Source of the DNA: an uncultured Clostridia bacterium
GTDB lineage: Bacteria; Bacillota; Clostridia; Christensenellales; CAG-917
Reading direction: 5' to 3'
DNA length: 64,000 nucleotides
NCBI GenBank assembly: GCA_944332815.1
Contig: CALVKQ010000002.1
Span: 1,787-65,786 of the forward strand
The position numbers were made by a program, and so were the translations under genes. The notes below the pieces were generated by a model. The model did no database searches and was not told the origin of the DNA. It worked only from the letters and a program-made list of their open reading frames with translations. Below are positions 1-15,727 of the stretch, one piece after another. Each line of letters begins with the position of its first letter. Within the stretch, counting starts at the first letter, position 1.

Positions 1-102
1 GCCAAAAGTGGAAGCTCGGCAATCACCTTTTCTATTGCGTCGACATCCACAAACCTCTTCTTTTTTGCCGCGTTATTCTCGTTGTCTTTCATAATAATCG
101 TC
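1..102 (-). CDS. hypothetical protein, N-terminal fragment (gene runs off the left window edge)
   Basis: Reverse-strand ATG at 100-102 with GGAGGA 8 nt upstream. Translates MKDNENNAAKKKRFVDVDAIEKVIAELPLLA and stays open to position 1. Too short to assign a family. Confidence 0.35.
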
Positions 103-117
103 CTCCGTCTCCCAAAT

Positions 118-150
118 AATAAAAAAAACAATGCCCCAAAAACGGGGCAC
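118..150 (-). terminator. rho-independent terminator downstream of the 433-aa nuclease gene
   Basis: Hairpin tgcccc-aaaaa-cggggca (132-149). On the minus strand it is followed by a T-run (the A-run at 118-130 on the plus strand). Confidence 0.7.
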
Positions 151-182
151 TGCATTGCTTCTCAAAAATTGAGCTGCTAATT

Positions 183-1484
183 TCACTTTATAAATTTTTC
201 TTTAAGCGGCTTAAAGAAACTATCAAAGAATAAGTCAACAGTTCTTTCCACGCATTTTTTTTCATTCTCAAATAACTTGTAAATCGCAGATTTCTCCTTT
301 TCGCCGTCATATCTGAAATTTAGTGTTGCGCCATCCACCATAACATGTTTCCAGTTCAGCCACCACCACTTCGGGTCCCCATGTTTGCCACCATTTTTCA
401 AATCGAATATTTTTATCAACTCTTCCTTGTTTTGAGGAGCCACGCTTATTTTGGACGATTCGCGTTCTTCTTTAATATACGGACAACACAATCCAATAAA
501 TAAATTTTCATCCACTTCTATCCTGATGGCTAAACCCAAGTCATCGCCAAGCACATTGCTGTATTTGGTTTGCAGATGCTCTTTCTTCACCAAGTAAGTA
601 AGTCCCGGGTAGTTTCGCCTCCTCCCGTAGTAATTATCTATCGCTTTGCTGTACCCGCCCCACAATTCGATTTCGTCTATTATGGTTTCGTCTTTTAGCC
701 TGTCTGCAATGCTCTTTTCGACTTTTGCGAAAAAATCCTTCATTTTATACGCTTTGACTTCATTTAAATGAGCGTTGATAAATACTGCGGATTCGTAATC
801 GTTTTTGTTTTTTATGATACTTTTCATAACTGCCACCTCCTTCTCGTATGCTGTAAACATTTTAATTGCGTTGCAAAACTGACTGACACAAAACTTGAAA
901 TTATTGTCGTCATTACCATCGATAAATTCATTCAACCACTTACCTATACCCTCCCAAGTGATAGGTATTATATCTCCACCATCTTGTCGTGAACAGCTTT
1001 TATCAGACGGCATTTCACCAAAAAGAGTTAAATAGCCGAGTTTCAACCCGTCAAAATAATATTTTGTTTTTGCATACTCCAGGTAATCTTTACATTGATT
1101 CGTCCTGTCCTGTGCATCTATTTTTGCCTCGATTGGTATAAACAATCCCCTATCCCAATTCACCAGCACTATATCGATCCTCTTTCCGTTGGGAATCATA
1201 TACTCTCTTAAAGATGTCCAGCTTTTTTCGTCTCCAATCGTTTCCTTGTCAAAATGCATAACATCCGTAAGAAACGATACGATCATCTGCGCGCCGTACT
1301 CCGGGTTATATTCCGCATTTAACAACCGTGATAAAAACTTGCACATTTTTGTCTCGTCGCGCACAATGTCTTCCATGATAAATATGTTCGGAAAAGAGAA
1401 TGTCGCATCGTACTTCAATTCAGATACTTTTCCCTCAACTTTATCCATCAGTTCCCCGATGTTTTTTCGCTCTTCTTCCTGCAT
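183..1484 (-). CDS. PD-(D/E)xK nuclease family protein (PDDEXK_4-like N-terminal domain plus ~240-aa uncharacterised C-terminal domain)
   Basis: 433-aa ORF with AAGGAG RBS before the ATG at 1484. The motif GKRIDIVLVN...FIPIEAKIDAQDRTNQCKDYLEY fits the D...(E/I)xK...Q..Y core of restriction-endonuclease-fold PDDEXK_4 proteins. It starts 16 nt after the WYL gene stop. Very AT-rich. Confidence 0.65.
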   Translation of the reverse strand: MQEEERKNIGELMDKVEGKVSELKYDATFSFPNIFIMEDIVRDETKMCKFLSRLLNAEYNPEYGAQMIVSFLTDVMHFDKETIGDEKSWTSLREYMIPNGKRIDIVLVNWDRGLFIPIEAKIDAQDRTNQCKDYLEYAKTKYYFDGLKLGYLTLFGEMPSDKSCSRQDGGDIIPITWEGIGKWLNEFIDGNDDNNFKFCVSQFCNAIKMFTAYEKEVAVMKSIIKNKNDYESAVFINAHLNEVKAYKMKDFFAKVEKSIADRLKDETIIDEIELWGGYSKAIDNYYGRRRNYPGLTYLVKKEHLQTKYSNVLGDDLGLAIRIEVDENLFIGLCCPYIKEERESSKISVAPQNKEELIKIFDLKNGGKHGDPKWWWLNWKHVMVDGATLNFRYDGEKEKSAIYKLFENEKKCVERTVDLFFDSFFKPLKEKFIK

Positions 1485-1499
1485 CTTCTACTCCTTGTA

Positions 1500-2477
1500 C
1501 TACATATATTTTTCCGCCGCGGAGGCGAGTTTTTCTCTTATGCTGTCACGAAGGTGCTGTGGCGACATTATTTCCGCATAATTGCAATACTGCATCGCCC
1601 AATATTCCATTGCTCTCGGGCTTGCCGTCAAGGTCACCTGGATTGTTTTATCATCGGTTGCTTTGACACCCACGTCCGTCCCGAACCAATCCACAATTTC
1701 GTCAAAAAACCATTCGGGGCAAGTGAGCGATATCGTTTCCGGCTTATCCGCGTACATATACGGACGCGAAAGAGCAAGTTCTTTGTAATTTATTCCGTGC
1801 TCATATCCTTTTACTTCACGAAGCGGAGTTCGAGAAGATTCCTGTATATGAATGTTGCTGATTTTATCCACCCTGTAAAAGGTCACATTCCCCCAATACT
1901 CTTCATACGCCATAAGAAAATAATGCTGATTGCGCAGTATCATCTGATAGGGGCTCACTTTGTGGGATTTGGACTTGTGAAGCTTTTTGTCGATGCCGTA
2001 TTTGTTGTAATCGAAGGTTATCTGTCTGTCGTTTTCTATTGCCTCGTCGATGAGATCGACATTGTAAAAAAACGCCGTATTCTGGGATTTGCTCCAGTCG
2101 CCCACCGAAAAAACATGCTTGACATGCGCCTTGAAATTGCGTCCGCCGAGTTTTATCAGTTTTTCGATCAACTCTTTGGAATGAGCCGCGTTTATGTGAC
2201 GGCTGCACAGCACGCTGTCGATGAGGATACGCAACTCCGAATTTTCGAAAGGTCTTTCGGCAAGATAACATCCTTTGCGCGTGTTCACAATGTCAACGCC
2301 CATTTCCATAAGACACGATACGTTCCTGCCTATCGCTTTTCTTTCCGCCTCTACCCCGTAATTTTTGTCCAGCAGGTCGATTATCTCGCTCTGGGTCAAC
2401 GGATGCTCGGCGTCAGAATATTCGTTAAGCACCTGATAAAGTCTTACAATAAGTGTTTTTTTCGCTTCCGAGGACAT
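1500..2477 (-). CDS. HTH-WYL domain transcriptional regulator (BrxR/CapW/PafBC-like architecture)
   Basis: 325 aa. N-terminal winged-HTH-like segment (LIVRLYQVLNEYSDAEHPLTQSEIIDLL). WYL-domain signature HYFLMAYEEYWGNVTFYRVDKI, plus a C-terminal WCX-like part. GAGGAG RBS. Colinear paralog at 43293-44264. Confidence 0.85.
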   Translation of the reverse strand: MSSEAKKTLIVRLYQVLNEYSDAEHPLTQSEIIDLLDKNYGVEAERKAIGRNVSCLMEMGVDIVNTRKGCYLAERPFENSELRILIDSVLCSRHINAAHSKELIEKLIKLGGRNFKAHVKHVFSVGDWSKSQNTAFFYNVDLIDEAIENDRQITFDYNKYGIDKKLHKSKSHKVSPYQMILRNQHYFLMAYEEYWGNVTFYRVDKISNIHIQESSRTPLREVKGYEHGINYKELALSRPYMYADKPETISLTCPEWFFDEIVDWFGTDVGVKATDDKTIQVTLTASPRAMEYWAMQYCNYAEIMSPQHLRDSIREKLASAAEKYM

Positions 2478-2495
2478 GTTCCCTCTCCTCGCTTA

Positions 2496-2524
2496 ATTCT
2501 ACCATCGAAATTTATACATTTCAA
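2496..2524 (-). promoter_or_regulatory. candidate sigma-A promoter of the WYL-nuclease pair
   Basis: On the minus strand: TTGAAA (2519-2524), a 17-nt spacer, then TAGAAT (2496-2501). This is ~20 nt upstream of the WYL start codon. Confidence 0.5.
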
Positions 2525-2663
2525 CTGCTTTTTTATATTGAATGTATATGTGTTGTCCTACTACCTTTGATTAATTGTAATATTGATAATGTACCATTTT
2601 CGGTGCATTGCTTCTTTGCCAAGTTTGCCGACGCCAATTTGCCTCCGTTATATAATCGTTTGA

Positions 2664-2714
2664 GAATGTCAAAATGATCGTACAGATGACATTACGGCAA
2701 TTTTTGAGAATGTC
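2664..2714. promoter_or_regulatory. three GAATGTC half-sites (direct/inverted/direct), candidate operator
   Basis: GAATGTC at 2664-2670 and 2708-2714 lies inside a 12-bp direct repeat TTTGAGAATGTC (2659-2670 and 2703-2714). The inverted copy TGACATT is at 2687-2693. All sit in the 344-bp AT-rich gap upstream of the WYL gene. Confidence 0.3.
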
Positions 2715-2821
2715 GGTTTTTGAAAAATTCTGTTTCAGGGCTGTTGACAATGCTTTTTCAAAATATACCGCAGACAAAACCAATGTCGGGCGAAGACTCC
2801 GACAATCGCAGAAAACTCATT

Positions 2822-3310
2822 TTATGACTTCCGATTTTTGCCGCTCAAGGTTTCGGGGATGACAACATTCTCATCGTTTCCTTTATACCAAGTAAGGCGG
2901 TATCCCTCTTGCAGACAGAAACCGTTTTCCTCGACTTCCGTGAGTTTCCGTTTTTCCTCTTCGCATTTATCGCAGGAATAATGCTCGTCGACTCGCACTT
3001 CGCAGCGTTTTCTCTCTATCCCCAACGCCTTTTTTATTCTGCGGACATCGGAGGGAGTGACGCATTTGTCCGCATACAGGACATATCTCCTTGCTCTCAC
3101 ATCGTAAAGCAGTCTGCCGCGAGGAAAAGTGACGAAATCGCCCCACACCCTTCTGCCTTTAATTTTTTTTCCTGCCGCAAGTTTTTCCCACATATCGAAA
3201 TGGGATTTGGAATAGTTTACGAAATCCTCACCCTCTCCGACCTCCCTGCTCTCGCGGTCGAAAACGATTTCTCCTCTGATTACCCAGAATATTCCCGTTT
3301 CAACTCTCAT
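2822..3310 (-). CDS. hypothetical protein (operon gene D)
   Basis: 162 aa. The start overlaps the stop of the MBL gene by 11 nt, and GGGGTGA lies upstream. Contains a CxxC (DEHYSCDKCEEE) but no family I recognise. The last ~25 aa (LTWYKGNDENVVIPETL) resemble the start of a BspA-type repeat and end abruptly at the AT-rich boundary. Confidence 0.55.
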   Translation of the reverse strand: MRVETGIFWVIRGEIVFDRESREVGEGEDFVNYSKSHFDMWEKLAAGKKIKGRRVWGDFVTFPRGRLLYDVRARRYVLYADKCVTPSDVRRIKKALGIERKRCEVRVDEHYSCDKCEEEKRKLTEVEENGFCLQEGYRLTWYKGNDENVVIPETLSGKNRKS

Positions 3311-5204
3311 AATTCACCCCGTGTACATAATGTATTTCGTCGGGCTTGACCCTTTCGACAAGCCTGCGTACCGCGTTCCCGTCCGCGTGACCGGAAGTGT
3401 GTATATATTCCTTCCGCACTCCGCCGTTTCGGAAAATGTCGAGAAAATTTTTCATCGCTCCTTTTTCCTCGTAGCCTTTCCACATTGAGTAAACCAGCGT
3501 TGCTTCTGTTCGCACTCGCAGAAGATTGCGGCAAATCTCCCCCATCGACGAACGCACAAGCATTACATACCCGCCCGCGATGTCGGCAAGCGCACTCGCG
3601 TCGCCGCCCTCCACGACAAAGCCCGTATGCGAACGCGGGTGCGGGATACTGCCGCCCGCGGCATTGAGTATTTCCGCCTGTCTGCCGTCGACGACGAGTT
3701 TCTTTCCGCATTTGCGACAGGCTTTGTAGACGGTGACTATGCGGTCGAAATTGGTGGCCGATGTCAACACATACACATCGCCGTCCGTCGCGGAAAATAC
3801 CTCTCGGAATTCCTTTTCCAGCTGTCTTTCCGATTTGTTCTCGCCCTTTCCCATAGCCGTACTGTCGCAAATGAGGACATCTACCTTTTCGGGCAGGCGC
3901 TCGAGCAAAGCGGGAAAACTCTTGCGCCCGTTCGCGCGGAAATCGCCGGTATAAAGCACGCTTTTCCCGTCCGCTTCGAAAAGCAGCATACGACTGTCAA
4001 GCGCGGAATGATCGCACACAAACGGAGTGACCGTCACACCGCCGAATTTTTTCGCGCCGTCCTGCCCTACCACATTGCGAAATTTTCGGCGACACAGCGA
4101 TTCCAGCACTCTTTTGGTGCGCGAACCGACATACACGATACATCTCATCGACATATCCATATCCGCAATGATCCCCGCATGGTCGGCATGATAATGCGTC
4201 ACGAAACACGCATTGTAATCCCCGCTTTTCACCACTCTTTCGCGCAGAGCCGTGCCTTCCGCCGTGGGATTGAGTTCCACCCCGCATTCCACGAGGATTC
4301 TGATTTGTCGGTAGGCAATTTCAATAAGGTTGGCGCCGATTTTGCCTTCGCCGTCGAGTATGCGATAAGTGAGTTCGCGCGGATACACCTCTCCGACGGC
4401 GTCGGGTAAATTTTGCTCGAACATTTCGCCGCCGCGTTCCCCGTAAAGTTTCCGCGCCGCGCGGCCCACCCTGTCCACGAAGTATCGCCTGTCCCAACTC
4501 GTGCCGTCCCGATTGCCGCAATTCCTCGCAAGATAGGTCATCGTCTGCCTGAACTTGTCGGGAGCAAACACAAGCAGACGCGCCATGTCCGTGGCAAGAC
4601 CGTATTCGATTCCGTTCAGATTCACTTTTTCGCACGGCATTGAAATTATGGTGTCGCACAGCGTCTCGCTCTCTTCCGCCGTAAGTTCTCTCTGCCAAAG
4701 GTCCGTGATTTTGAAATACATTTCACTCACCGCAAAAATTCCGTCCGCAGTTATCCCGAAGAGCTTTTTCACATCTTCGAAACTGAATTTCTCCGCGCCG
4801 AGACGAAACCTGCACGCCATCGCGTATTTTTGCACTTCCACCATATCTTGCCAGGGCTCGCCCACCGTCTTCATGCCCGAAATGGCATAGTGCCCTTTCA
4901 ACCCGCAATCGCGCAGCAACACCCGCAAATCCCGGCTTTGATCGAAACTCGCGCACCTCACACGGATTTCAGCGGCTTGCGTTCCGTCGGTTTCTTCGCT
5001 CCATGCGCCCTGCGCCTTAAGAAAATCGCGGAACTTGTACACTATGTCCTTCTCCGTTTGTCCTGAACGCTCCTCCCCGTCCGACGGAACGCGCTCTTCT
5101 CCCGCGTACTCCTCGAACATTCCCTTGAGATCTCCGTCCACGATGTCGATTGCTCTTATAAAGCGCAATTTCCCGTCCTCTTTACCCATTTCGAAAAATA
5201 CCAT
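3300..5204 (-). CDS. MBL-fold / beta-CASP (RNase J-like) metallo-nuclease with ~280-aa novel N-terminal domain (operon gene C)
   Basis: Motifs in order: HYHADH (HxHxDH), CDHS, YTGDF, VLICDST (beta-CASP motif A-like) and IHTSGHAD (RNase J/CPSF-type motif C). The ORF track starts at a TTG (5216). The ATG at 5204 has GGAGG 5 nt upstream, so I prefer it. Confidence 0.8.
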   Translation of the reverse strand: MVFFEMGKEDGKLRFIRAIDIVDGDLKGMFEEYAGEERVPSDGEERSGQTEKDIVYKFRDFLKAQGAWSEETDGTQAAEIRVRCASFDQSRDLRVLLRDCGLKGHYAISGMKTVGEPWQDMVEVQKYAMACRFRLGAEKFSFEDVKKLFGITADGIFAVSEMYFKITDLWQRELTAEESETLCDTIISMPCEKVNLNGIEYGLATDMARLLVFAPDKFRQTMTYLARNCGNRDGTSWDRRYFVDRVGRAARKLYGERGGEMFEQNLPDAVGEVYPRELTYRILDGEGKIGANLIEIAYRQIRILVECGVELNPTAEGTALRERVVKSGDYNACFVTHYHADHAGIIADMDMSMRCIVYVGSRTKRVLESLCRRKFRNVVGQDGAKKFGGVTVTPFVCDHSALDSRMLLFEADGKSVLYTGDFRANGRKSFPALLERLPEKVDVLICDSTAMGKGENKSERQLEKEFREVFSATDGDVYVLTSATNFDRIVTVYKACRKCGKKLVVDGRQAEILNAAGGSIPHPRSHTGFVVEGGDASALADIAGGYVMLVRSSMGEICRNLLRVRTEATLVYSMWKGYEEKGAMKNFLDIFRNGGVRKEYIHTSGHADGNAVRRLVERVKPDEIHYVHGVNYES

Positions 5205-5221
5205 TCCTGCCTCCAATTTAT

Positions 5222-5249
5222 ATATGATATTATTATTTCCATATCATAT
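5222..5249. promoter_or_regulatory. perfect 9-bp inverted repeat ATATGATAT-N10-ATATCATAT between operon genes B and C
   Basis: Read directly: 5222-5230 and 5241-5249. It lies immediately upstream of the gene C RBS in the 78-nt B-C gap. A small GC hairpin plus T-run (gcggc..gccgc, ~5265-5282) lies just after the gene B stop. Confidence 0.35.
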
Positions 5250-5282
5250 TGTCCAACCGAAAAGCGGCTTTGCGCCGCATTT

Positions 5283-5969
5283 TCAATATGTCTCTATTCT
5301 CGTTCCCAGCGCTTCGATCAGTTTCCCGAGAGCGGGTCTTTCGCCTATTTCCCGCCACTCTTGTGCGGCTCGGCTGTCCGATTTCACCCACACCGCCTTT
5401 TGCAGGCGTTTGGCGTCTTTTGCCCAAGGTATTTTGTCGGCGGCGGCAAGCGTCGCGAACAGTCTTTCGCGGTGTGGCGCAAGCAGCCTGAAATATGTCT
5501 CTATTTCCAGTACGCAACGAAGCAAAGTTTCCTTTGACCTGTTCGCGCCCTCCACATCGCTTCCCTTGACTTCCACGAGCGTCAGCGTCGCAGTGTTTTC
5601 GTCGTATGCGACAAGGTCGACATTGATTTTCAATCGCTTCAGGATGTTCACCTGATAGTTGACTATTCTCCCGAATTTGAAGATTTCCTCCGCGCGACGG
5701 TTGAAGCGCGCAAGGCAGAATTTTTCTTCGTTGCGCACGGATTTGTTCCTTTCGCTGCTGCCGTCGTGCCCGTCGAACGCAAAAGAGTCGCGCACCTCAC
5801 CCTCGGGCAAACGCAATTGCTCGCCGTCGAGAAGCAGACTTGCGATTACCTCGGTGTAATATTCCCCGGTGTCGGCTGTTTTGCCCGCATAATTGACCTC
5901 CGCGCGCTCGTAGGACGGCTTGATGCTCGAGCGAAACGCGCGCACTATTTCCCCGCAGGTATAGCCCAT
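5283..5969 (-). CDS. PD-(D/E)xK nuclease, NucS/DUF91-like core (operon gene B)
   Basis: INVDLVAYDENTATLTLVEVKGSD...ETLLRCVLEIETY matches the D-x(n)-E-x-K pattern of NucS/RecB-type endonuclease domains. The ATG at 5967-5969 overlaps the TGA of gene A (TGATG). GGGAGGGGG RBS. Confidence 0.6.
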   Translation of the reverse strand: MGYTCGEIVRAFRSSIKPSYERAEVNYAGKTADTGEYYTEVIASLLLDGEQLRLPEGEVRDSFAFDGHDGSSERNKSVRNEEKFCLARFNRRAEEIFKFGRIVNYQVNILKRLKINVDLVAYDENTATLTLVEVKGSDVEGANRSKETLLRCVLEIETYFRLLAPHRERLFATLAAADKIPWAKDAKRLQKAVWVKSDSRAAQEWREIGERPALGKLIEALGTRIETY

Positions 5970-6373
5970 CACTTCCCCCTCCCGACGAAATAACTCGCCG
6001 TCTTTATTCCGGTGATCTTATCCCCCACCCATACCGAACGCGCGCTGCCCTCACCGTATTCGTCGGCATATTCTCCGTACTGAAACAAATATCCGAAACA
6101 CGCCCCGAGCGCCAGCTTTTCCTTGCGTTCCAGTTCTCTTTCGAATATGTCACTCCTGCTCTTGACATAGACATATATGGGAGGCAACTGCAGAACATCG
6201 TTGCAGAATTTTATGTGGCTCATCAGTTCGTCGTCCTGTATGTCGCGAAGGAACGCGTCGAAATATTTGCTCTCCTCCGCAAACCACTTTGTACCGCGAT
6301 ATGTTTTGTTGAACTTCACGATGTCGAAATCCACAACCCCTTCCTCCTCCCGCTCGTCCGCCCGACGCGGCAA
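5969..6373 (-). CDS. hypothetical protein (operon gene A)
   Basis: The ORF is open from a TTG at 6373. A GTG at 6334 preceded by GGAGGAGGAAGGGG is a more plausible start (~121 aa). No recognisable domain. Confidence 0.5.
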   Translation of the reverse strand: MPRRADEREEEGVVDFDIVKFNKTYRGTKWFAEESKYFDAFLRDIQDDELMSHIKFCNDVLQLPPIYVYVKSRSDIFERELERKEKLALGACFGYLFQYGEYADEYGEGSARSVWVGDKITGIKTASYFVGRGK

Positions 6374-6491
6374 CGGAATACGATATTGAAAAATTCGCTA
6401 TCATATTCAATACAACACAATCAAACGATTTTGTCAACGGTTTTGTTGTGCCCGCCTCATTTTTCACTGCGCAACATTCCGCTTCGCTCAA

Positions 6492-6552
6492 TCCGCCGTT
6501 ACTGGAATCCGCAAAACTCGAAGCGTCTGTTTCCTCTCCGCCATTACTGAAT
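6492..6552. promoter_or_regulatory. two 16-17-bp direct repeats in the divergent control region
   Basis: TCCGCCGTTACTGGAAT (6492-6508) and TCCGCCATTACTGAAT (6537-6552), 45 bp apart. A TTGACA (minus strand, 6432-6437) with a weak -10 (TGTATT) lies downstream, facing gene A. Confidence 0.25.
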
Positions 6553-6688
6553 TTTTTAATCGGAATTTGACACTAAATCGCAGCGCAACCGTTGATTTTA
6601 TCACCGCAATATATTAAAATCTTTATGTAGCAGATCCATCCCCTCACACAATCAACGGCAACCGACTGTGCCCTCGACGCTGAAAAAA

Positions 6689-7141
6689 ATGACTAACCGG
6701 AATTCCAAAATTCAAGCGCCCTGCCAAGTTTGCGGTAAAAGTGTCCTTGTCGACCCGTACGGCAACGGCTTTTGCGAAAACTGCGGCTGGGTTCAAAACC
6801 GGGAGTATGACAAATACCCCGACGATGTCCGCTACCCGAATACCGTTTCTTTCAACAAAGCAAAACGGCTTTTCGCGGAAGGGCAACCTCTCTCTCCCTC
6901 TTTTGAAGATTTTATAAAAGGCTTAAAGTTCTACAAGGAAATGCAGTTCGATTACGACGGCAAAACTTACGGCGTGCTGATAAGAGAAAACGACTCCGTT
7001 CACTTCTATCTCTTCCACTCTCTCGAAACCTATCAGATATACCCTTCCGTCACCGCCTTCTACGAAAAAGCCCACATCAACGGCACCCCTCTCTCCTCAC
7101 TTTGGCCAGAAGTGCTCAATGCAGGATATATGATTTCATAA
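6689..7141 (+). CDS. zinc-ribbon (CxxC...CxxC) protein of unknown function
   Basis: CQVCGKSVLVDPYGNGFCENCGW is a CPCC-like zinc ribbon, followed by a ~100-aa uncharacterised domain. The ATG at 6689 is preferred over the GTG at 6668. The RBS is weak. Confidence 0.5.
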   Translation: MTNRNSKIQAPCQVCGKSVLVDPYGNGFCENCGWVQNREYDKYPDDVRYPNTVSFNKAKRLFAEGQPLSPSFEDFIKGLKFYKEMQFDYDGKTYGVLIRENDSVHFYLFHSLETYQIYPSVTAFYEKAHINGTPLSSLWPEVLNAGYMIS

Positions 7142-7153
7142 TAGTCACATAAT

Positions 7154-7660
7154 TCAAGCGAAATAATTTTTAATTGCAATATCTTGTAATGTCCCTATAA
7201 CCGCATCATAATCCGCCTCTTCAAACAACAATTTCTGCGTAATATCTCGGTAATCACTTTTATAGATTTTACGATCAATTATTTCTTGAAGTAAGCGGCT
7301 TATATCAACTCCAACTTCAGCTGCAGAGCTTTTTTGACTATTGCGGCGTACTTCCCGAGTCTGTGCAACCAATTCTCCGAATTCGTCATCGAATTTTATG
7401 TGCGGATAAATTTTGTAAATATCGTACAGATGCCTCGAGTGTTCCGTCACTCTCCCGTCCAAGTAGCAGTCGCAAACGGCAAACACTTTGTCGATGAATG
7501 TTCTCACAACAGATTGTACTCTGATTTCAAAGGGGGCAAATTCGTATTTAGCCACAATCGAGTCGAATCCGGCATTATGTAAAAATTCGTATAACAGACT
7601 GCTCACTTCACGTAGCTCTGTTGGAAAAGCTGGAATGCTGTAATATGTCTCCACTGTCAC
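7154..7660 (-). pseudogene. AbiEii/AbiGii-family nucleotidyltransferase toxin, C-terminal half only
   Basis: 168 aa with FEIRVQSVVRTFIDKVFAV and SRHLYDIYKIY, typical of the C-terminal part of DUF1814/AbiEii proteins. The N-terminal NTase region (~100+ aa) is absent, there is no RBS, and there is no adjacent AbiEi partner. Confidence 0.45.
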
Positions 7661-7746
7661 ATATTTTTATGGCCACTTTTTATCAAGTATTGCTACACCA
7701 CCAGATTCAATTTTTCGTTTCAAAAGGGTTTTGACGGGTACTGCGA

Positions 7747-8628
7747 TTATTTTTTAGCAGATTGCTTTATCTGCGAATGATAGAAGTAATTTATAATGAT
7801 GGGTTTGCCTGTGGGGTTGCGCAGGAAAGGTTCTTCGTCGATTACATACATGAAATCGTTTGCGCAGGCGTAGTCCGCAACCTTTTGGTCTAATATCTTC
7901 CAATAGGTCGTATCGTTCTTATTATAGATTTCGCGGTACAGCGGCAAAAGAGGGGGATACTTTTCCTCAATATAGTTCATGACGTCTGCCTTGAAATTGC
8001 CGCGCAGATTCAGATTTTCCAGCCAGATATAGTCGCAGAAGTCCTTGATTTTTTCAATAATGTCAAATACTTCGGTGATTTCAGGGAATATGGGCGATAT
8101 AAAGCAGGTTGTTCGTATGCCTTCTTCGTGGCACTTTTTCATTGCCGCAATCCTGCGCTCTATGGAAACAGCGCTGTCCATATCGTTCTTGAAATTTTCG
8201 TCGAGTGTGTTTATCGACCAACTTATAAGGGGAGACGGGAAAGTCTTTATCAAATCGAGGTCGCGCAGCACAAGATCTGACTTGGTGGTGATAATAAGGT
8301 TTATTCTGCTGCCCTGCATCTGCTCTAAAAAGGCGCGCGTGCGGCGGAACATTTCCTCCTGCGGATTATAAGCGTCCGTGACCGAGCCTACGATCATCGT
8401 CTGCCCGTCGTACCTCTGCGGGTTTTTGATCGGCTCCCAATGCTTGACGTCGAGAAAGGTTCCCCACGGCTCGTCATGCCCCGTAAAACGTTTCATGAAA
8501 CAGGCATAGCAATACTTGCAGGCGTGCGTGCAGCCTACATAGGGGTTTACCGAGTAACCGGCTATGGGCAGGTTCGATTTTGTGAGTACGGTTTTTACCC
8601 GTATATCGCGTATCTTTACTTCGTCCAT
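7747..8628 (-). CDS. radical SAM protein, SPL/DNA-photolyase-like family (COG1533)
   Basis: VNPYVGCTHACKYCYA is the CxxxCxxC cluster in its typical SplB-like context. 293 aa. Confidence 0.85.
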   Translation of the reverse strand: MDEVKIRDIRVKTVLTKSNLPIAGYSVNPYVGCTHACKYCYACFMKRFTGHDEPWGTFLDVKHWEPIKNPQRYDGQTMIVGSVTDAYNPQEEMFRRTRAFLEQMQGSRINLIITTKSDLVLRDLDLIKTFPSPLISWSINTLDENFKNDMDSAVSIERRIAAMKKCHEEGIRTTCFISPIFPEITEVFDIIEKIKDFCDYIWLENLNLRGNFKADVMNYIEEKYPPLLPLYREIYNKNDTTYWKILDQKVADYACANDFMYVIDEEPFLRNPTGKPIIINYFYHSQIKQSAKK

Positions 8629-8629
8629 A

Positions 8630-8789
8630 TCAGCCTCCCAAATTGTTGAGGATGCGTTTCAGATAGCTTTCAAATTGCTCGACCTCCTCGTCCGAAAAGC
8701 CTTTGTAATAAATATCTTCGATCTCTTTTGTCACGCCATCGTATTCATCTTTGAGTGCGGCGGTTTTTTCAGTCAGGCATACAAGTGCG
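8630..8789 (-). pseudogene. MarR-family regulator, C-terminal remnant
   Basis: LTEKTAALKDEYDGVTKEIEDIYYKGFSDEEVEQFESYLKRILNNL looks like the last helices of a MarR protein. The wHTH part is missing, and the upstream part of the ORF overlaps the glycosidase gene end. Confidence 0.4.
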
Positions 8790-10562
8790 CTACGCCTGTA
8801 CTTCGAAATAGGCGAATGAATACGGTCCCAAGGCAAATTCCGCCGTGCCATCCGTAATGGTTGCATTGAGCGGCTTTCCGTCGGCAGAGCATTCCCAAAC
8901 AGTACCCGATACGACAGTTCCGTTCGGAATATCCGCGCCGCTGATGTTTGTCACGATATTTTTACCCGTGTCGGCGCAGTTGGAAACAAGCATCCCGGTT
9001 GTTCCGTCTGATATATCGGTGACCGCGATCGCCCACAACCCATGCCCGGACGTAGTGACGCTGAGTTGCATCGGGGAAGTCATCGAATAGAGTCGATCAT
9101 ATGCGCTCATCGCATACGTACCTGACAGCGGTTGTAATGGTTCGTCTTTGTATTCTTCGAGCAGCTTGCGCATAAAAGAATTCAATGCCTCCGCGCCGCC
9201 TGCCATATACGCTTCGATCAATTCGGAAAGACTTTCGTTGCCGATATCGAAGTACGGTTTGTAGTAAAGGCCGCACCACATACCGGTCATCTGCGAATCG
9301 TAGTACAAAGCGGCGTCGACAGCCGAATTTTGGAGAGCGATCAGCGAGGCGGCAACATACGCCCCAGATTTGTTCGAAGAAATAATGCGGTAGCTGTCAG
9401 CGAGAGATCCTTCGTCCCATCCCGATACGAAATTCCATTCGTCAAGTATGAGCAACGCATTTGAATAGCCGTGTTCCGCGAGCATATTCTTAAAAACGGA
9501 ATACTGATCGGAGTTGTATTGTTCAGGATCGCTACGATAGGCATGAACGGACAGAAAATCCAGAGGATAGCCACCGACGGCTTTAAGAAAAGCCCCGATG
9601 GTTTCGGTAGTACTTGTCGCAAGCGCCGGTCCTCCGATTTTGACTTGCTCCCCGAATTCTTCCCGGATAGCCTGCGCAGTTACGCGATATAATTCGTAAT
9701 ACTGTTCGAGAGTGCCGTTCCACATTGCCGATTGATCGGGTTCGTTCCAGATCTCGTAATATCGAATGCCATACTCGTAAAAGTAGTGACGTACGACTTC
9801 CGTGCAGATATTTGCCCACTTGACAATGTCTTCCGGGACTACGGTATAACCGCCTGAGCCCGTATGGTCTATGCTTTCTCCCAAACGGTAAATGATCTCG
9901 GCATCCGGTACGGCGGTAAGTATCGATCGCACATATTCGTCCGTCTTATCGAAGTCGTAATTGGTTATGTCCTTTTCATCGGCGGAAAAGTCGGGGAAGA
10001 CGCAGTGTATGTCGACATAGCCGTCTCTTCCGAACGGATATTCCGTGTCGTGCAAACGTACGAAAGGAGTTCCCATATTCGCAAAATATTCCGAAGCGTC
10101 GATATACGGCTCATCGAATATTCCGATACCGTTTACAGGACCGTTATTGATACCGTGAACAGGCTTCATTTTATCGGCAACGACAACGGATCCGTCGATT
10201 GCGATCGATGCGGACATATAACCGTTGTCGGTTTCGGAGATAGGTATGCGTCGCGCATAGAATGCCGTGTCGCCGTCGATCAGTGCGGGGAAGGTCGTTT
10301 TTTGTCCGGTGTAGTCAGCGTCGGAGTACCAACCGTCAAATACCATGCCCGCGACCGTAGGTACATCGGGACAGCTCACGGTGCCGTTTTCGACTTTAAC
10401 GGCACGATAAAGCGTGCCGTCTACATAAAACCACGCAGTACCGTCGCTGCGCCCGGGCGAAACAACAATTACGGAAACCGCTATGGCACCTCCCAGTAAT
10501 ATGGTCAATACGATTACAGCGACAGATAATGCGGCTATGACTTTTTTAGCGGTATCTTTCAT
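8790..10562 (-). CDS. membrane-anchored clan GH-A glycoside hydrolase (GH39-like) with Listeria/Bacteroides-type repeat
   Basis: YYEIWNEPD (acid/base Glu), DFLSVHAY and LILDEWN (nucleophile region). N-terminal TM helix. GMVFDGWYSDADYTG repeat. The ATG at 10562 has a GGAGG RBS; the ORF-track start at 10607 is probably too long. Confidence 0.75.
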   Translation of the reverse strand: MKDTAKKVIAALSVAVIVLTILLGGAIAVSVIVVSPGRSDGTAWFYVDGTLYRAVKVENGTVSCPDVPTVAGMVFDGWYSDADYTGQKTTFPALIDGDTAFYARRIPISETDNGYMSASIAIDGSVVVADKMKPVHGINNGPVNGIGIFDEPYIDASEYFANMGTPFVRLHDTEYPFGRDGYVDIHCVFPDFSADEKDITNYDFDKTDEYVRSILTAVPDAEIIYRLGESIDHTGSGGYTVVPEDIVKWANICTEVVRHYFYEYGIRYYEIWNEPDQSAMWNGTLEQYYELYRVTAQAIREEFGEQVKIGGPALATSTTETIGAFLKAVGGYPLDFLSVHAYRSDPEQYNSDQYSVFKNMLAEHGYSNALLILDEWNFVSGWDEGSLADSYRIISSNKSGAYVAASLIALQNSAVDAALYYDSQMTGMWCGLYYKPYFDIGNESLSELIEAYMAGGAEALNSFMRKLLEEYKDEPLQPLSGTYAMSAYDRLYSMTSPMQLSVTTSGHGLWAIAVTDISDGTTGMLVSNCADTGKNIVTNISGADIPNGTVVSGTVWECSADGKPLNATITDGTAEFALGPYSFAYFEVQA

Positions 10563-10948
10563 TGACGCCTCCGTAAAAAGTATATCATGTGATCGCGTTA
10601 AAATCAAGATTGCTCTACTTACAATAGCTTTCAGGCAATAAAAGACCGTGAGCCGAAAAGCAGCTTCGTGAGCCCTTTACTATATCTGCGCTTGTCAGAA
10701 AAACTTTTATCCGCAATAAGCAAAAGCAGGTGGGTTCAAAAACAAAAACTCTGCCGTAATGCAAAGGTCATGATATTGCTTGGATAAGGGGTCGTTGCCG
10801 TGCTGCTATTGCCGGCAAGGATCGTCGTATGCGCATCAGTATACAATATAATTATAGCACTTTTTGAAGCAAAAAGCAAAAATCATACGTAAAAAATCTT
10901 ATGGCACTATGGCGGGTGTTTGAATAAACAAGTGCGGCTTTTAGGCAT

Positions 10949-10973
10949 TGTGGTGCGGCATTGCCGCACCACA
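10949..10973. repeat. perfect 11-bp stem / 3-nt loop hairpin in an 850-bp non-coding stretch
   Basis: tgtggtgcggc-att-gccgcaccaca, read directly. Confidence 0.6.
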
Positions 10974-11457
10974 AACCTTCGCGCTTCGCGCTCGGGCGTC
11001 GCAGCCAAGCACACGCCACGAAAAAGACAACAAAAATAAAACGAAAAACCAAACCGAAAGCGCGGCGGCGCGGAGCCGTCCCCGCTAAACCGCTTGGGAT
11101 CGGCTGCCGCTTTTCCGCCGTGCGATCCTTTCTCCTTATTGGTTTTGCCGTTCCGTTCACCTCTTGAATTTTGCCTCTTTCGGCAGGCTTAAGTTAGCAT
11201 AGTCCTCGCGCAAGTCAACGGTCGCAAAATCGTCGCTTAAAACACCCATAGAAACCATTCGAGAGTCTGGTAAGGTAAGTTCCCTTGCTCGGCTCTTTTT
11301 TCGCATATAAGCCGTTCTGCGAGCCTTTAACGCAACGATTTTGTCTTTGTTCCGTTGACTTCCGCAGACCGACAGGGAATTTGCTTTCTTTTCACCGTCC
11401 CATGCTGCCCCGCCTGTTGCCCGAAAAAGGCAAATCCAATTCAAGAGGTGAAAGAAA

Positions 11458-12084
11458 ATGGAACAAAAGAAAGTGATAAGAGATTTCAAAGTCCTTACGG
11501 AGCAAATATCTCCGGACAATGTAGCGGTAATGGCGGAACTCATAGCCATGCGCGAGACCAAAGCGCTCATAGGATATTATGGGTATTACGCGGAAAAAGC
11601 GCATAAAAACCTTTGCCGGGACATCTTCGGCAAACACGAGCCCGAATATATCTTTTCGGACAGTTACGACTTCGTCCAAAGCGTGGCGTTATTCTTATGC
11701 GGCCACTTCGGAGAGCATCCGGACGACGTCCTGTATATCTCCAAAAAAGGCAAGCCGAGGACAATAAAAATAGAATGCTATCGCATTGTCACGAGAATGC
11801 TGGCAAGAGGCCACAGAGCCTTTTGCAGATGTCAATGCTTTGAATTCACGAAAGAAGAACCTGAACTCGTATATGAATATCAAACAGACGAGGAACAGGA
11901 CTTCTCACGCGCAGACGAGATCGCGGCTTCCCTGAACCTCACTGAAAATATGAGTCTTGCACTCGATTATCGTATGTCCGGCTTGAGCTATCCCGAGATA
12001 GCGAAACAGCTTTCCAGAGCGGTAAGCACGGTATATGAGTACTTCGAGAAAATGCGCGCGAGGTATTCCGCCATATACGGATAA
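11458..12084 (+). CDS. sigma-70 region-4 / HTH protein typical of clostridial integrative elements
   Basis: 208 aa. C-terminal LALDYRMSGLSYPEIAKQLSRAVSTVYEYFEKMRARY is a LuxR/sigma-region-4-type HTH. AGAGGTG RBS. Lies upstream of the serine recombinase module. Confidence 0.6.
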   Translation: MEQKKVIRDFKVLTEQISPDNVAVMAELIAMRETKALIGYYGYYAEKAHKNLCRDIFGKHEPEYIFSDSYDFVQSVALFLCGHFGEHPDDVLYISKKGKPRTIKIECYRIVTRMLARGHRAFCRCQCFEFTKEEPELVYEYQTDEEQDFSRADEIAASLNLTENMSLALDYRMSGLSYPEIAKQLSRAVSTVYEYFEKMRARYSAIYG

Positions 12085-12490
12085 CAGCGAAAAAGCCCCA
12101 TGTTCTCTATATACATAACTTTTTCAAAAATCTTTTCAAATAGGAAAATAGCCTTCCTATTTGACGGGTACCATGTGGAAAAACAAACGAAAAACTTTTT
12201 CAAAGTGGCAAGAAACCTTGCCTCTTTGGAGTGTACCCTCTCCACGAAAGGAGAAAGCGAGGGTCAACCTGTCGGAAATTCCGACAAGTACAACCTATCC
12301 GCAAAAGGAGGAAACAGCCATGCAAAAATCGCTTAAATATCTGCCTTGCACGGGCTTCACATAGGCAAAGCGATAATCTAACAAACAACCGTAACAAAGA
12401 ATGAGAAACGAATAAGAACCGGTGCGCTCTTATTCCGACAGCAAGACTGCGTTTTTCATTCCCGACAAAGCAATTTGAAAGGAGTTAAAA

Positions 12491-12661
12491 ATGCAATCGA
12501 ACTGTTCGAGAAAAGAAAGGATAACCGTCCGTGAGGAACTCATAGGCGGCAAAAGATATATCGTTGTCAGTCATTATGCAGGCAAGAAGGATTTCAAAAA
12601 AATCATCTGCGATCACGCTTTCAGACAAACGCTTGCAGAAACGGATCACCCGACAGACTGA
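12491..12661 (+). CDS. small TnpW-like transposon protein (56 aa, below the ORF-track cutoff)
   Basis: GGAG RBS then ATG at 12491. Translates MQSNCSRKERITVREELIGGKRYIVVSHYAGKKDFKKIICDHAFRQTLAETDHPTD. The size, position just upstream of the recombinase and the G..Y.V..h...g pattern resemble TnpW of Tn4451-like elements (from memory). Confidence 0.4.
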   Translation: MQSNCSRKERITVREELIGGKRYIVVSHYAGKKDFKKIICDHAFRQTLAETDHPTD

Positions 12662-12751
12662 CCGCACGGGCGGCTTGATGTTTTGTGTGTTTTGCCGTAT
12701 AATAAAAGCACACCGAATAAAAAGCCGCTTCGATTCAGAGGAGTAAAAGAA

Positions 12752-14371
12752 ATGACATCGAAGCAAAACAACAAAGACTACATCGTCGGCATGTATGTAA
12801 GACTTTCCCGCGACGACGAACGCACGGGCGAATCGCTGTCCATCGAGAACCAGAAGGCGATCCTGAACGAATACATAGAAAAACAAGGCTTCACGCTCTA
12901 CGATATCTATGTGGACGACGGCATTTCGGGAACGACATTCGACCGTCCCGGCGTAAAACGGCTCTTGGACGACGCCAAGCAAGGCGTCATCAATACCGTG
13001 CTTGTAAAGGACATGAGCCGCTTCGGCAGGAATTACATTATGGTCGGACAGTATCTCGATTACGTGTTCCCCGCTTTCGGCATCCGGTTTATCGCCTTAT
13101 CCGACAACATCGACACCGAGAACAAAGATACCGCCGCCATGGATATGATGCCCATCACAAACGTATTCAATGAATGGTGGGCTGCCGCCACAAGCAAGAA
13201 ACTTCGTGCCGTGCGCATCCAAAACGCCAAGAAGGGCAAAAACGGAATGTCTCATGCCCCATACGGTTACATACTCGGAACGGACGAGAAACGCACCTTG
13301 CAAGTAAACGAAGAAGTCGCGCCGGTCGTAAAGCGGATATTTGAAATGCGGGCGCAAGGACTGACGCCGAGAAAGATCGCGGATGTCCTGAACGCCGAAA
13401 AGGTATTGACGCCAAACGATTACAGGCTGTCAAAGACTGGCGTTACGACCGTACCCGCTTCGCTGCACCTATGGAACACTTCCGTTCTCCGCACGCTCTT
13501 GGATAATCCGGCTTATATCGGTACTCTGGCACAGCACAGGACTACCACCGTTTCCTACAAGAATCATAAGTGGCAACGGCGGCCGAAGGAAGATTGGATC
13601 GTGATCGAAAACGCGCATGAGCCGATCATATCCAAAGAGTTATGGAACAGAGTGAAAGAGGTAGAGTCTTCCGTCAGTCACGGCAAACGTACAAAACGCG
13701 GCTATATGCATCCGCTTTCGGGTTTACTGTACTGCGCAGACTGCGGTGCAAAAATGCGTTTGGGTTGGAATATGCCGAAAGACATACCCTATTTCAACTT
13801 CAACTGCGGAACACGTTCGCGCTGCGGCTCGTCCGCCTGTTTCAGTCATTTTATAACGGTCTCGGTGTTAGAGCGGATCGTGCTGAACGACGTGAGAGAC
13901 AAAGCACAGAAAATCGTTGCCGACGAACGGGAATTCAGGCGGAAGTTTCTGGAACATACCGCAAAGCTCGCCGACAAAAACCAATCCGACGTTAAAAGAG
14001 AACTCAAGCGAACGGAACAGCGCGTTGCAGAACTCGATAAGCTCATAAGCGCGGCGTTCGAAGAAAAGGTCGCAGGTAAGATCCCCGAAAACGTGTGCTT
14101 GCAGCTGATCGACAAGTACACCGCAGAGCAAACGGAACTGAAAGAACGGATTTCTTATCTTACGCAGGGACTTGAAGAAAAGCAGCGAGCGGCAACCGAC
14201 GTGGACGAGTTTATACGGCGAATGAAAAAACACATCAATGCCCCCGAACTGACAAGAGAGCTCTGTCTGGAGCTATTCGAGAAACTTGTCATCGGCGGCA
14301 AAGAAACAGTCACGGGCAAACCGCAAGAGGTACATATCTATTACAAGATAGACATCGATAGCATTTTGTAG
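12752..14371 (+). CDS. large serine recombinase (TnpX/TndX/CcrB-like)
   Basis: The N-terminal resolvase domain YVRLSRDDERTGESLSIENQKAIL contains the catalytic Ser. It is followed by a recombinase domain, a zinc ribbon (CADCGAKM...CGTRSRCGSSAC) and a coiled-coil. GAGGAG RBS before the ATG at 12752. Confidence 0.9.
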   Translation: MTSKQNNKDYIVGMYVRLSRDDERTGESLSIENQKAILNEYIEKQGFTLYDIYVDDGISGTTFDRPGVKRLLDDAKQGVINTVLVKDMSRFGRNYIMVGQYLDYVFPAFGIRFIALSDNIDTENKDTAAMDMMPITNVFNEWWAAATSKKLRAVRIQNAKKGKNGMSHAPYGYILGTDEKRTLQVNEEVAPVVKRIFEMRAQGLTPRKIADVLNAEKVLTPNDYRLSKTGVTTVPASLHLWNTSVLRTLLDNPAYIGTLAQHRTTTVSYKNHKWQRRPKEDWIVIENAHEPIISKELWNRVKEVESSVSHGKRTKRGYMHPLSGLLYCADCGAKMRLGWNMPKDIPYFNFNCGTRSRCGSSACFSHFITVSVLERIVLNDVRDKAQKIVADEREFRRKFLEHTAKLADKNQSDVKRELKRTEQRVAELDKLISAAFEEKVAGKIPENVCLQLIDKYTAEQTELKERISYLTQGLEEKQRAATDVDEFIRRMKKHINAPELTRELCLELFEKLVIGGKETVTGKPQEVHIYYKIDIDSIL

Positions 14372-14420
14372 CCCTTACACACAACAACCCCTCCGAACAA
14401 CTTTATGTCCATTTTGTTGT

Positions 14421-15593: not shown

Positions 15594-15727
15594 ACCTAAA
15601 ACGAACCACTTTGCGTGCAAGTCGTTTTAGGTTTTTTGTTTTGTCATAGCGAAGCGGAATAAGAAAAGTATTCCGGCGCAGGTTTTCCGCGCTTGACAGC
15701 CGCGCCGCGCAAGGCTATGCTGATAGC

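Follow-up and report, generated by a model that had tools for sequence, protein, structure and literature searches.

What is a cluster of four adjacent genes, two of them predicted to encode nucleases of different folds and two encoding small proteins of no recognisable family, doing in the accessory DNA of an uncultured Clostridia bacterium? The genes, here termed A, B, C and D, lie within a 64,000 nt stretch of contig CALVKQ010000002.1 (assembly GCA_944332815.1); this whole stretch is referred to below as the window, and coordinates are relative to it unless prefixed by the number of a related locus. A preliminary description of the window had put the genes forward as a candidate undescribed defence-type system. 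This proposal gains support from the synteny, gene fusions and defence-associated neighbours of related loci, the defensive function itself being something that we infer. We put at about even the chances that the cassette represents an undescribed, WYL-regulated multi-nuclease system of defence or conflict, directed against phages or other invading DNA.

A conserved cassette of four genes

All four genes lie on the minus strand and are separated by tight junctions (Table 1), as both the list of open reading frames (ORFs) and the sequence confirm. The stop codon of A and the start codon of B share a single base (TGATG), B and C are divided by a spacer of 78 nt, and C and D overlap by 11 nt. The longest ORF for A begins at a TTG codon; the likelier start is the GTG at 6334, which is preceded by a GGAGGAGGAAGGGG ribosome-binding site and gives a protein of 121 aa (5969-6334). 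When compared with a relative 77-85% identical to the window copy (L109), the ratios of nonsynonymous to synonymous substitution rates (dN/dS) are 0.07 for A, 0.11 for B and 0.13 for both C and D, at dS values of 0.6-1.2, which marks all four, by this measure, as real genes under strong purifying selection rather than chance ORFs.

Related loci were collected using the metallo-beta-lactamase (MBL) nuclease encoded by C, which is the family's constant component, as the marker. Among 185,579 species genomes, 80 loci, distributed over many phyla, were found to encode members of the same MBL clade; most of these proteins are around 380-400 aa in length and lack the N-terminal DEDD domain of C described below. 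Members of the family are frequent in uncultured gut Clostridia and are also found on Proteobacterial plasmids and in other phyla. Within phage and plasmid collections C has matches of 22-32% identity, restricted to the MBL part, whereas searches of 72,556 plasmids and 50,697 phage records recovered no homologue of A.

Full-length homologues of C (37-42% identity) are accompanied by the entire A-B-C-D set in L001-L004, L010-L012, L015, L017, L106 and L108, and the arrangement is conserved in relatives diverged to 40-69% identity. Other orders include A-B-D-C, with an MBL protein of 375 aa (L101-L104), A-B'-Sel1-D-C (L090-L093) and A-B'-Sel1-ClpN-D-C-DEDD (L009), as well as loci in which D and the MBL nuclease form a single protein, preceded either by A and B' (L016) or by B (L018). 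A C-type MBL protein is encoded by 23 of the 26 loci with A, the other three being one contig end and two decayed copies. Gene A is invariably found directly upstream of a PD-(D/E)xK gene, the two frames abutting or overlapping in the window and its close relatives, and D invariably adjoins, or is fused to, an MBL nuclease, a PD-(D/E)xK nuclease or an FtsK-like ATPase. The possibility, raised in the preliminary description against its own proposal, that the genes would not be syntenic in other genomes can therefore be set aside, since they form a conserved unit.

The fusions of D provide the strongest evidence for joint action of the four products. The domain is joined to the MBL nuclease in L016, L018 and L090, to B in L011 and to an FtsK-like ATPase in L015, and in L001-L004 gene D overlaps a 397 aa FtsK_SpoIIIE gene. 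As one small domain is attached to three different partners, the products would appear to act together, with D as their connector.

The commonest partner of C, present in most of the loci, is a fast-evolving PD-(D/E)xK nuclease. Clustering of neighbouring proteins identified the recurrent same-strand partners as D...ExK proteins of 240-340 aa, DEDD exonucleases, HTH_11 proteins and WYL regulators. The D...ExK proteins consist of B itself, in 18 loci, and four more clusters found in 5-16 loci each, which are weakly related to B (hhalign E values of 2e-4 to 8e-3, against 0.3-0.6 for controls). The DEDD exonuclease is a frequent third nuclease of the family, its counterpart in the window being an inactivated domain fused to C.

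A single cassette, with an identical A protein, was found in four distinct flanks. Two decayed copies (L105:8363-8956 and L107:993-1586) comprise an intact A and a B cut to 197 aa, followed by a Lactamase_B_3 gene and by an adh_short fragment that is unrelated; the sister contigs of these copies (L106 and L108) retain A-B-C-D. The varied flanks, decayed copies and serine recombinase neighbours suggest that the cassette behaves as dispensable cargo.

Gene C combines a beta-CASP nuclease with an inactivated exonuclease domain

The preliminary description had credited C with a complete RNase J/CPSF-type set of beta-CASP motifs, and every one of these is present: HYHADH (residues 337-342), DHS (398-400), TGD (419-421), CDST (446-449) and HTSGHA (602-607). 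They supply MBL motifs 2 (H337-x-H-x-D-H342), 3 (H399) and 4 (D421), together with beta-CASP motifs A (D447) and B (H606); motif C (H628) follows, directly past which the protein stops. The beta-CASP insert, from D421 to H602, is about 180 aa long. Residues H337, H339, D341, H342, H399, D421, H602 and H606 are invariant in ten full-length homologues, and D447 is replaced by glutamate in most relatives. In the alignment with Bacillus subtilis RNase J1, LICDST of C is paired with LLSDST, HTSGH with HTSGH and the final VHG with IHG. The Pfam Lactamase_B_2 and RMMBL profiles both match above their cut-offs (35.1 bits against 27, E 1.3e-8, and 23.2 bits against 21.6, E 7e-5, respectively), and the closest solved structures by sequence are those of Enterococcus faecalis EF2904 (2AZ4), CPSF73, RNase J1 and Cas14.

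Such similarities might mean that C is simply a housekeeping RNase J paralogue with chance neighbours. Relatives are labelled 'ribonuclease J' in some sources, and, besides the RMMBL match, NCBIfam RNase J profiles recognise C (E 4e-16 and 1e-14). The scores fall far under the family cut-offs, however, at 58.8 bits against 820 for NF047419 and 53.5 bits against 400 for TIGR00649; furthermore, the neighbours are conserved, and the cassette is situated by recombinases in a lower-GC island and is missing or decayed in close relatives. A housekeeping role is consequently disfavoured, and we find it barely credible. Given the motif alignment, the Pfam matches above cut-off and RNase J scores so far below threshold, C is classified by its sequence as a beta-CASP nuclease of the RNase J/CPSF73 type and not as an RNase J orthologue.

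The N-terminal region of about 280 aa, which the preliminary description had been unable to place, can be assigned to an inactive DEDD exonuclease-like domain and a helical linker. It was compared with the stand-alone DEDD (RNase_T) genes that neighbour short MBL relatives, after these had been split by size from the PolC/DnaE genes to which single linkage had joined them via the PolC exonuclease insert, and was matched by hhalign with a probability of 95.2% (E 2.9e-8). The catalytic D-x-E has gone, FFEMG in the window standing in place of FDLES in the relatives; no acidic residue is invariant across the family, and the ExoII motif is not recognisable by eye in the alignment of homologues. On these comparisons the domain is homologous to DEDD exonucleases and catalytically dead.

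Gene B encodes a predicted PD-(D/E)xK nuclease

The product of B had been described as a NucS-like PD-(D/E)xK nuclease. The second half of this description is supported by the motif VDLV...LVEVK, at residues 117-135, and by the invariance of E81, D118, E133, K135, E147, R151, E155 and Y159 in ten diverse homologues (18-32% identity), which preserves the core catalytic motif, E81...D118...E133-V-K135, in the expected order. The likeness to NucS was not recovered: no NucS/DUF91 match to B was found in Pfam or NCBIfam at E values of up to 0.1, nor any NucS among PDB matches at E values of up to 10. Profile matches of other kinds are weak (Pfam HSDR_N_2, E 0.048, and a faint match to NERD in a relative), and searching PDB sequences with a B profile returned chance matches alone, the best nuclease being UPF0102 at an E value of 1.8. 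Homologues of B fall into 409 clusters at 50% identity, and in other proteins the domain is joined to SIR2 (P0302) or to REase-ARP/PDDEXK_13 (P0329). B is thus a PD-(D/E)xK nuclease by prediction from its motif, and the catalytic residues of B and C, as read from the alignments, are intact.

The small proteins A and D

What had been reported of the two small proteins was borne out by inspection: A is a domain-less protein of 121-134 aa, depending on the ORF read, with a TGATG junction to B, and D has 162 aa, a single CxxC (C113 and C116) and an 11 nt overlap with C. None of the 76 homologues of A has a Pfam domain. The A protein is acidic (pI 5.5) and mainly helical, with a beta-hairpin at its C-terminus, and is characterized by the invariant motifs Y-x-G, F-x-ND, PP, K-x-x-LGACFG and W...T-x-x-K-x-AS-x-F. 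The AlphaFold2 (AF2) models are confident, with predicted local distance difference test (pLDDT) values of 96.6 for A and 88.5 for D; with Foldseek, the model of A found no fold match in PDB or BFVD and that of D none in PDB (best E 0.2). Similarly, profile scans of A, B and D in PADLOC, Pfam, NCBIfam and PHROGs returned nothing significant.

Conservation of D is confined to its basic domain of 116 residues. Using a profile built from homologues that had been cleared of D-MBL fusion proteins, 19 homologues are recognised, all without a Pfam domain and ending at about 117-126 aa. These share the motifs GIFW, HF-x-x-W, DF-x-TFPRGR, D-x-C and DEHY-x-CD-x-C; the invariant histidines and cysteines make a metal site in this domain probable. 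On a Rhizobium plasmid, the gene for a D homologue that has no cysteines overlaps that for the MBL protein (hhalign 96.7%). Identification of D as an SSB protein, raised by an NCBIfam match at an E value of 0.0035, was rejected, the AF2 model having no OB-fold match. The last 46 codons of D, unconserved in the family, are on this evidence the remnant of another gene joined by rearrangement; the tail is also lengthened in the relative P0122, where by eye it resembles a repeat of the BspA/LRR_5 type.

The pairing of small proteins with nucleases calls to mind an addiction module of the toxin-antitoxin type, in which A would neutralise B, D would neutralise or regulate C, and the island would be stabilised with no dedicated anti-phage role. 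This would be consistent with the tight coupling of each small protein to a nuclease (one base between A and B, 11 nt between C and D), with the better conservation of A and D than of their nuclease partners and with the presence of the cassette on integrative elements. By contrast, the fusion of D in cis to MBL, B and FtsK proteins would be unusual for an antitoxin, and many members of the family are without A and D. Addiction also overlaps with abortive-infection defence and does not exclude it. As a full account of the cassette, we consider it very unlikely.

Genomic context and competing explanations

Recognised defence genes were found within about 8 kb in 8 of 13 non-redundant contexts, counted by hand. 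For instance, ZacB and ZacC of the Azaca system lie directly upstream in L094 (E 1e-149 and 1e-274), and in L096 the MBL gene is near McrBC, a Mokosh-like helicase, a KAP NTPase and AbiH. A type IIG restriction-modification (RM) enzyme is found near the MBL gene of the Rhizobium plasmid locus and McrC in a Butyrivibrio plasmid locus; TIR proteins and PDC-S01 occur beside the P0161 cassettes. The absence of any fitting named defence system, which the preliminary description had suggested, was upheld by database searches: Pfam, NCBIfam and PHROGs gave no named system for A-D, PADLOC was negative for four of the short-MBL relatives and for five representatives of the putative nuclease partners, and no description of the A-B-C-D gene set was found in the literature.

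In L096 (L096:5235-8149), the KAP NTPase gene, encoding a QatA/PifA/PDC-S20-like protein of 589 aa, overlaps by 4 nt the gene for an MBL protein of 382 aa. The NTPase looks like an alternative sensor partner of the same MBL effector; KAP NTPase fusions have been found to defend in Enterococcus (PMC13552941).

A number of observations weigh against a defensive role. The link to defence islands is one of guilt by association, drawn from a small, hand-counted sample with no matched control. The PADLOC 2.0 models gave no match for B, C or D and a chance-level value of 0.029 for A. The class assignment of B leans on a motif and on weak profile matches, and, since neither A nor D has a fold match, the roles proposed for these are guesses. 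The cassette of the window, in which the 3' end of D is rearranged, may itself be impaired. To these can be added the coupling of D to an FtsK-like ATPase, by overlap (L001-L004) or fusion (L015), and the rolling-circle Rep gene and serine recombinase upstream of the cassette in L001 and L002, because of which the genes could instead be involved in an element's own handling of DNA; and, finally, the location of seven short-MBL loci (L035, L040, L044, L045, L047, L048 and L050) next to polC, dnaE or PolC-like genes, which recalls replication or repair.

Under the first of these alternatives, the nucleases and an FtsK-like translocase would serve the transfer, replication or establishment of a mobile element, of which the window, sharing a recombinase and a sigma-like gene with L001, would hold an ATPase-less relic. 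The preliminary description had remarked on the lack of an ATPase; this is correct for the window and does not extend to the family, given the five close relatives in which D is coupled or fused to one. FtsK is, however, not found in the loci L010, L012, L014, L106/L108, P0161 and P0192, and no remnant of FtsK or Rep was found in the window. The cassette is also present in chromosomal islands without a mobility gene (L090, L101 and L104), it has no linked genes for a relaxase or for mating-pair formation, and homologues of A were not found in plasmid and phage records. The B-SIR2 fusion and the Azaca, McrBC and RM neighbours are better suited to defence. We regard processing of mobile-element DNA as unlikely.

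The second alternative is damage-inducible repair or end processing, for which an SNM1/Artemis-like beta-CASP nuclease would be combined with PD-(D/E)xK and DEDD enzymes under a WYL regulator sensing single-stranded DNA. WYL regulators can be damage-responsive, PafBC and DriD being examples, and WYL or HTH_11 genes flank the module; furthermore, the cassette of L005 lies near a Y-family polymerase accompanied by ImmA/HTH genes. Nevertheless, motif C is the histidine of RNA-type enzymes and not the valine of SNM1/Artemis, and no ligase, Ku or helicase partner was seen. The patchy distribution, the decay or loss of the cassette in close relatives and the variety of insertion sites also argue against repair, as does the divergence of B, which is much faster than that of the other components and is accompanied by domain shuffling, both typical of conflict systems. 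Repair therefore seems to us quite unlikely.

Two of the polymerase genes, L040:8332-10830 and L048:12186-14456, lie directly downstream of HTH-MBL-PD-(D/E)xK cassettes and encode truncated PolC-like proteins (832 and 756 aa) that by eye consist of PHP and polymerase core without the exonuclease insert. In L035, L044, L045, L047 and L050 a full-length polC or dnaE comes either immediately next or one gene further on. The polymerase-adjacent loci could constitute a branch of the family devoted to repair or replication.

Putative regulation of the cassette

A gene for a WYL/WCX transcription regulator is located 344 nt downstream of D, with a promoter-like element (TTGAAA, 17 nt, TAGAAT) at 2524-2496. 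Full-length orthologues of the regulator (34-44% identity) flank MBL modules in six other loci (L009, L048, L073, L074, L084 and L100), in four of which they are directly upstream of B or the MBL gene, and on account of this recurrence the WYL gene is a probable fifth component and regulator of the cassette. Nonetheless, the WYL gene and the PDC-S26-like gene, which starts 15 nt past its end, may by virtue of this proximity be a regulator-effector pair of their own. In L090-L093 the MBL gene, too, is followed by a PDDEXK_4 gene that is PDC-S26-like.

The four genes had been taken for one operon, with a perfect 9 bp palindrome in the gap between B and C. Co-directional, coupled genes and a 78 nt gap are indeed present; the palindrome proved to be an interrupted inverted repeat, its 9 bp arms, ATATGATAT (5249-5241) and ATATCATAT (5230-5222), lying 10 nt apart across a promoter-like element. 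Upstream of this is a terminator-like hairpin with a GCGGC-GCAAA-GCCGC core, a stem of up to 13 bp and a U-rich tail, and the entire spacer fold, 91 nt, has a z-score of -3.4. A hairpin followed by an AT-rich repeat is found at the same position, with other sequence, in L001, L003, L015 and L109, and the hairpin of L109 has a compensatory C-G to T-A change. The element at 5222-5255 is a candidate internal promoter and operator for C-D, and the operon is thus probably divided by an internal terminator and promoter. Since this layout is kept in four relatives, A-B and C-D may be under separate control.

Upstream of A, a promoter with a TTGACA-17-TGTATT configuration and an upstream TG was read by hand at 6437-6409. 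The 9-mer AATATGATA occurs in the window only at 5242-5250 and 6399-6407 (expected 0.29), on the coding strand in both cases, such that its copies sit in the putative promoter regions of C-D and A-B. It may be a shared operator or just reflect similar -10 regions, and is given little weight because one copy has a 1 nt insertion in L109.

The surrounding island

The setting is the accessory mosaic that had been reported, the WYL regulator, AbiEii remnant and serine recombinases all having been located (Table 1). The cassette is inside a low-GC mosaic of about 16 kb; GC content rises from around 0.45 to 0.57 at about 16 kb, and this step suggests an island edge near 16000. Judged by its profile coverage, the ORF at 7154-7660 is a truncated remnant of an AbiEii toxin, beside which no AbiEi partner was seen in Pfam and PADLOC scans. 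In positions 1-16000, scans with Rfam and for tandem repeats revealed neither an RNA family nor a CRISPR array.

Several further genes surround the cassette. A cysteine-rich CPCC-family protein of 157 aa (6668-7141, plus strand), divergent from A, matches two PHROG families without an assigned function. A radical SAM 'mobile pair' protein B is encoded at 7747-8628 on the minus strand (TIGR04470, 471 bits, above cut-off); such proteins are normally partnered by a protein A. The expected partner position is occupied by a 78 aa ORF (8630-8866, minus strand), which precedes it and has no Pfam match, and the mobile pair may therefore be incomplete. A glycoside hydrolase of family 39 with a Listeria-Bacteroides repeat (Flg_new) domain (8790-10607, minus strand, 605 aa) has no evident link to the cassette.

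Table 1. Positions of the cassette, its parts and neighbouring features in the window
Feature	Position	Strand	Details
PDDEXK_4 protein	183-1484	minus	433 aa; PADLOC candidate PDC-S26, E 9.5e-36
WYL/WCX transcription regulator	1500-2477	minus	325 aa; Pfam WYL and WCX; PADLOC WYL, E 2e-25
Gene D	2822-3310	minus	162 aa
Gene D tail, last 46 codons	2822-2962	minus	unconserved in family; dN/dS 0.27
Gene D conserved domain, residues 1-116	2963-3310	minus	basic, pI 9.4
Gene C	3300-5204	minus	634 aa from ATG, GGAGG in front
Gene C residues 285-634	3300-4352	minus	metallo-beta-lactamase and beta-CASP nuclease domain
Gene C residues 9-157	4734-5180	minus	DEDD (RNase T/DnaQ-like) exonuclease-like domain, then helical linker to about residue 280
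Promoter-like element	5222-5255	minus	TGGACA, 17 nt, TAATAT
Terminator-like hairpin	5256-5287	minus	straddles B stop codon (5283-5285), extends just downstream
Gene B	5283-5969	minus	228 aa from ATG
Gene A	5969-6373	minus	longest ORF, 134 aa from TTG at 6373
AbiEii C-terminal remnant	7154-7660	minus	168 aa; PADLOC 125-275/283, Pfam 113-234/238
Large serine recombinase	12683-14371	plus	full-length, DUF4368; 56% identical to L001 recombinase
Second serine recombinase copy	14706-15593	plus	truncated

A working model and its significance

A defensive cassette of this kind might function as follows. The WYL repressor would hold expression low until a nucleic-acid or damage cue is received. A and B would constitute a gated sensor and endonuclease, with A gating or targeting B, that makes the first cuts. 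D would be a metal-binding adaptor docking C onto B or onto the substrate, and C, as a 5'-end-dependent exo- or endonuclease, would degrade the exposed nucleic acid from the new ends. RNA would be a serious candidate for the substrate of C, alongside DNA, as motif C is a histidine, like that of RNase J, CPSF73 and Cas14. The outcome would be destruction of the invader or an aborted infection.

A bolder reading is that the family represents a new class of innate immunity in which D, a protein of novel fold, plugs a beta-CASP nuclease into swappable sensor or motor partners under WYL control, these partners including the A-guarded PD-(D/E)xK nuclease, the FtsK-like ATPase and the KAP NTPase. We advance this tentatively, as a proposal with somewhat worse than even prospects. 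It would provide the first beta-CASP immune effector outside type VII CRISPR, the rare type from which alone such effectors are known so far.

Should the cassette be defensive, a widespread effector class, pairing a beta-CASP/RNase J-like nuclease with one of restriction fold, would be added to immunity, along with two small protein families that have confident predicted structures and no known fold. The fusions of D to three enzymes offer a concrete, testable model for the modular wiring of immune nucleases. Few defence systems have been tested so far in uncultured gut Clostridia. If the cassette serves element maintenance or repair instead, the A-B and D-C pairings would still identify novel regulators for two major superfamilies of nucleases.

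Comparison with known systems

The enzymes most similar to C are RNase J, CPSF73 and Integrator-11. Residues 283-627 of C align with 14-391 of RNase J1 (3ZQ4), and C has in common with this group MBL motifs 2-4, beta-CASP motifs A, B and C (histidine) and the RMMBL region. It differs from RNase J in being only around 20-25% similar, in lacking the RNase J C-terminal domain and in possessing a dead DEDD N-terminus; moreover, RNase J is a housekeeping enzyme, whereas C is found on accessory islands with dedicated partners.

Defence operons regulated by WYL proteins are typified by BrxR in BREX and CapW in CBASS. As in these, the effector genes have a WYL/WCX factor next to them, and its orthologues recur with the cassette module. 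The genes regulated are different, however, the regulation is putative, and the WYL gene of the window lies downstream, where it may control the PDC-S26-like gene instead. Pairs of HerA/FtsK ATPases and nucleases are likewise familiar, from end resection by archaeal HerA-NurA and from the SIR2-HerA and DUF4297-HerA defence systems. The coupling or fusion of an FtsK/HerA-superfamily ATPase to the D domain in five close relatives resembles these pairs; by contrast, the ATPase is optional in the family and not present in the window, and none of NurA, SIR2 and DUF4297 is related to the nucleases of the cassette.

In the literature found, the role of immune effector has been described for a single beta-CASP nuclease, Cas14 of type VII CRISPR-Cas, an RNase that does not act alone but is recruited by a Cas7/Cas5 complex (PMC10910872, PMC13069675). 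Its sequence matches to C are weak (PDB 8YHD, E 9.5e-9, in the N-terminal part of the MBL domain), and the NCBIfam cas14 profile scores 18.5 bits on C against a cut-off of 800. Unlike type VII CRISPR-Cas, the locus has no array in 1-16000 and no match to Cas7/Cas5 or other Cas proteins among the neighbours; in place of the partners of Cas14, the cassette has a PD-(D/E)xK nuclease and two novel small proteins.

The MBL nucleases of Hachiman (HamM), AVAST, Lamassu, DRT and canu systems are ComEC-like DNases, without a beta-CASP insert, that are activated by a fused trypsin-like protease or caspase (PMC12799240; PMC13069673). In the cassette the MBL protein is of the beta-CASP type, Pfam detects no protease domain in A-D or their neighbours, and PADLOC RTasMBL and LmuA match relatives only at E values of 0.018-0.03. 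What the cassette would share with these protease-gated systems is the use, as a defence effector, of an MBL-fold nuclease that is encoded by a separate gene and controlled by its partners.

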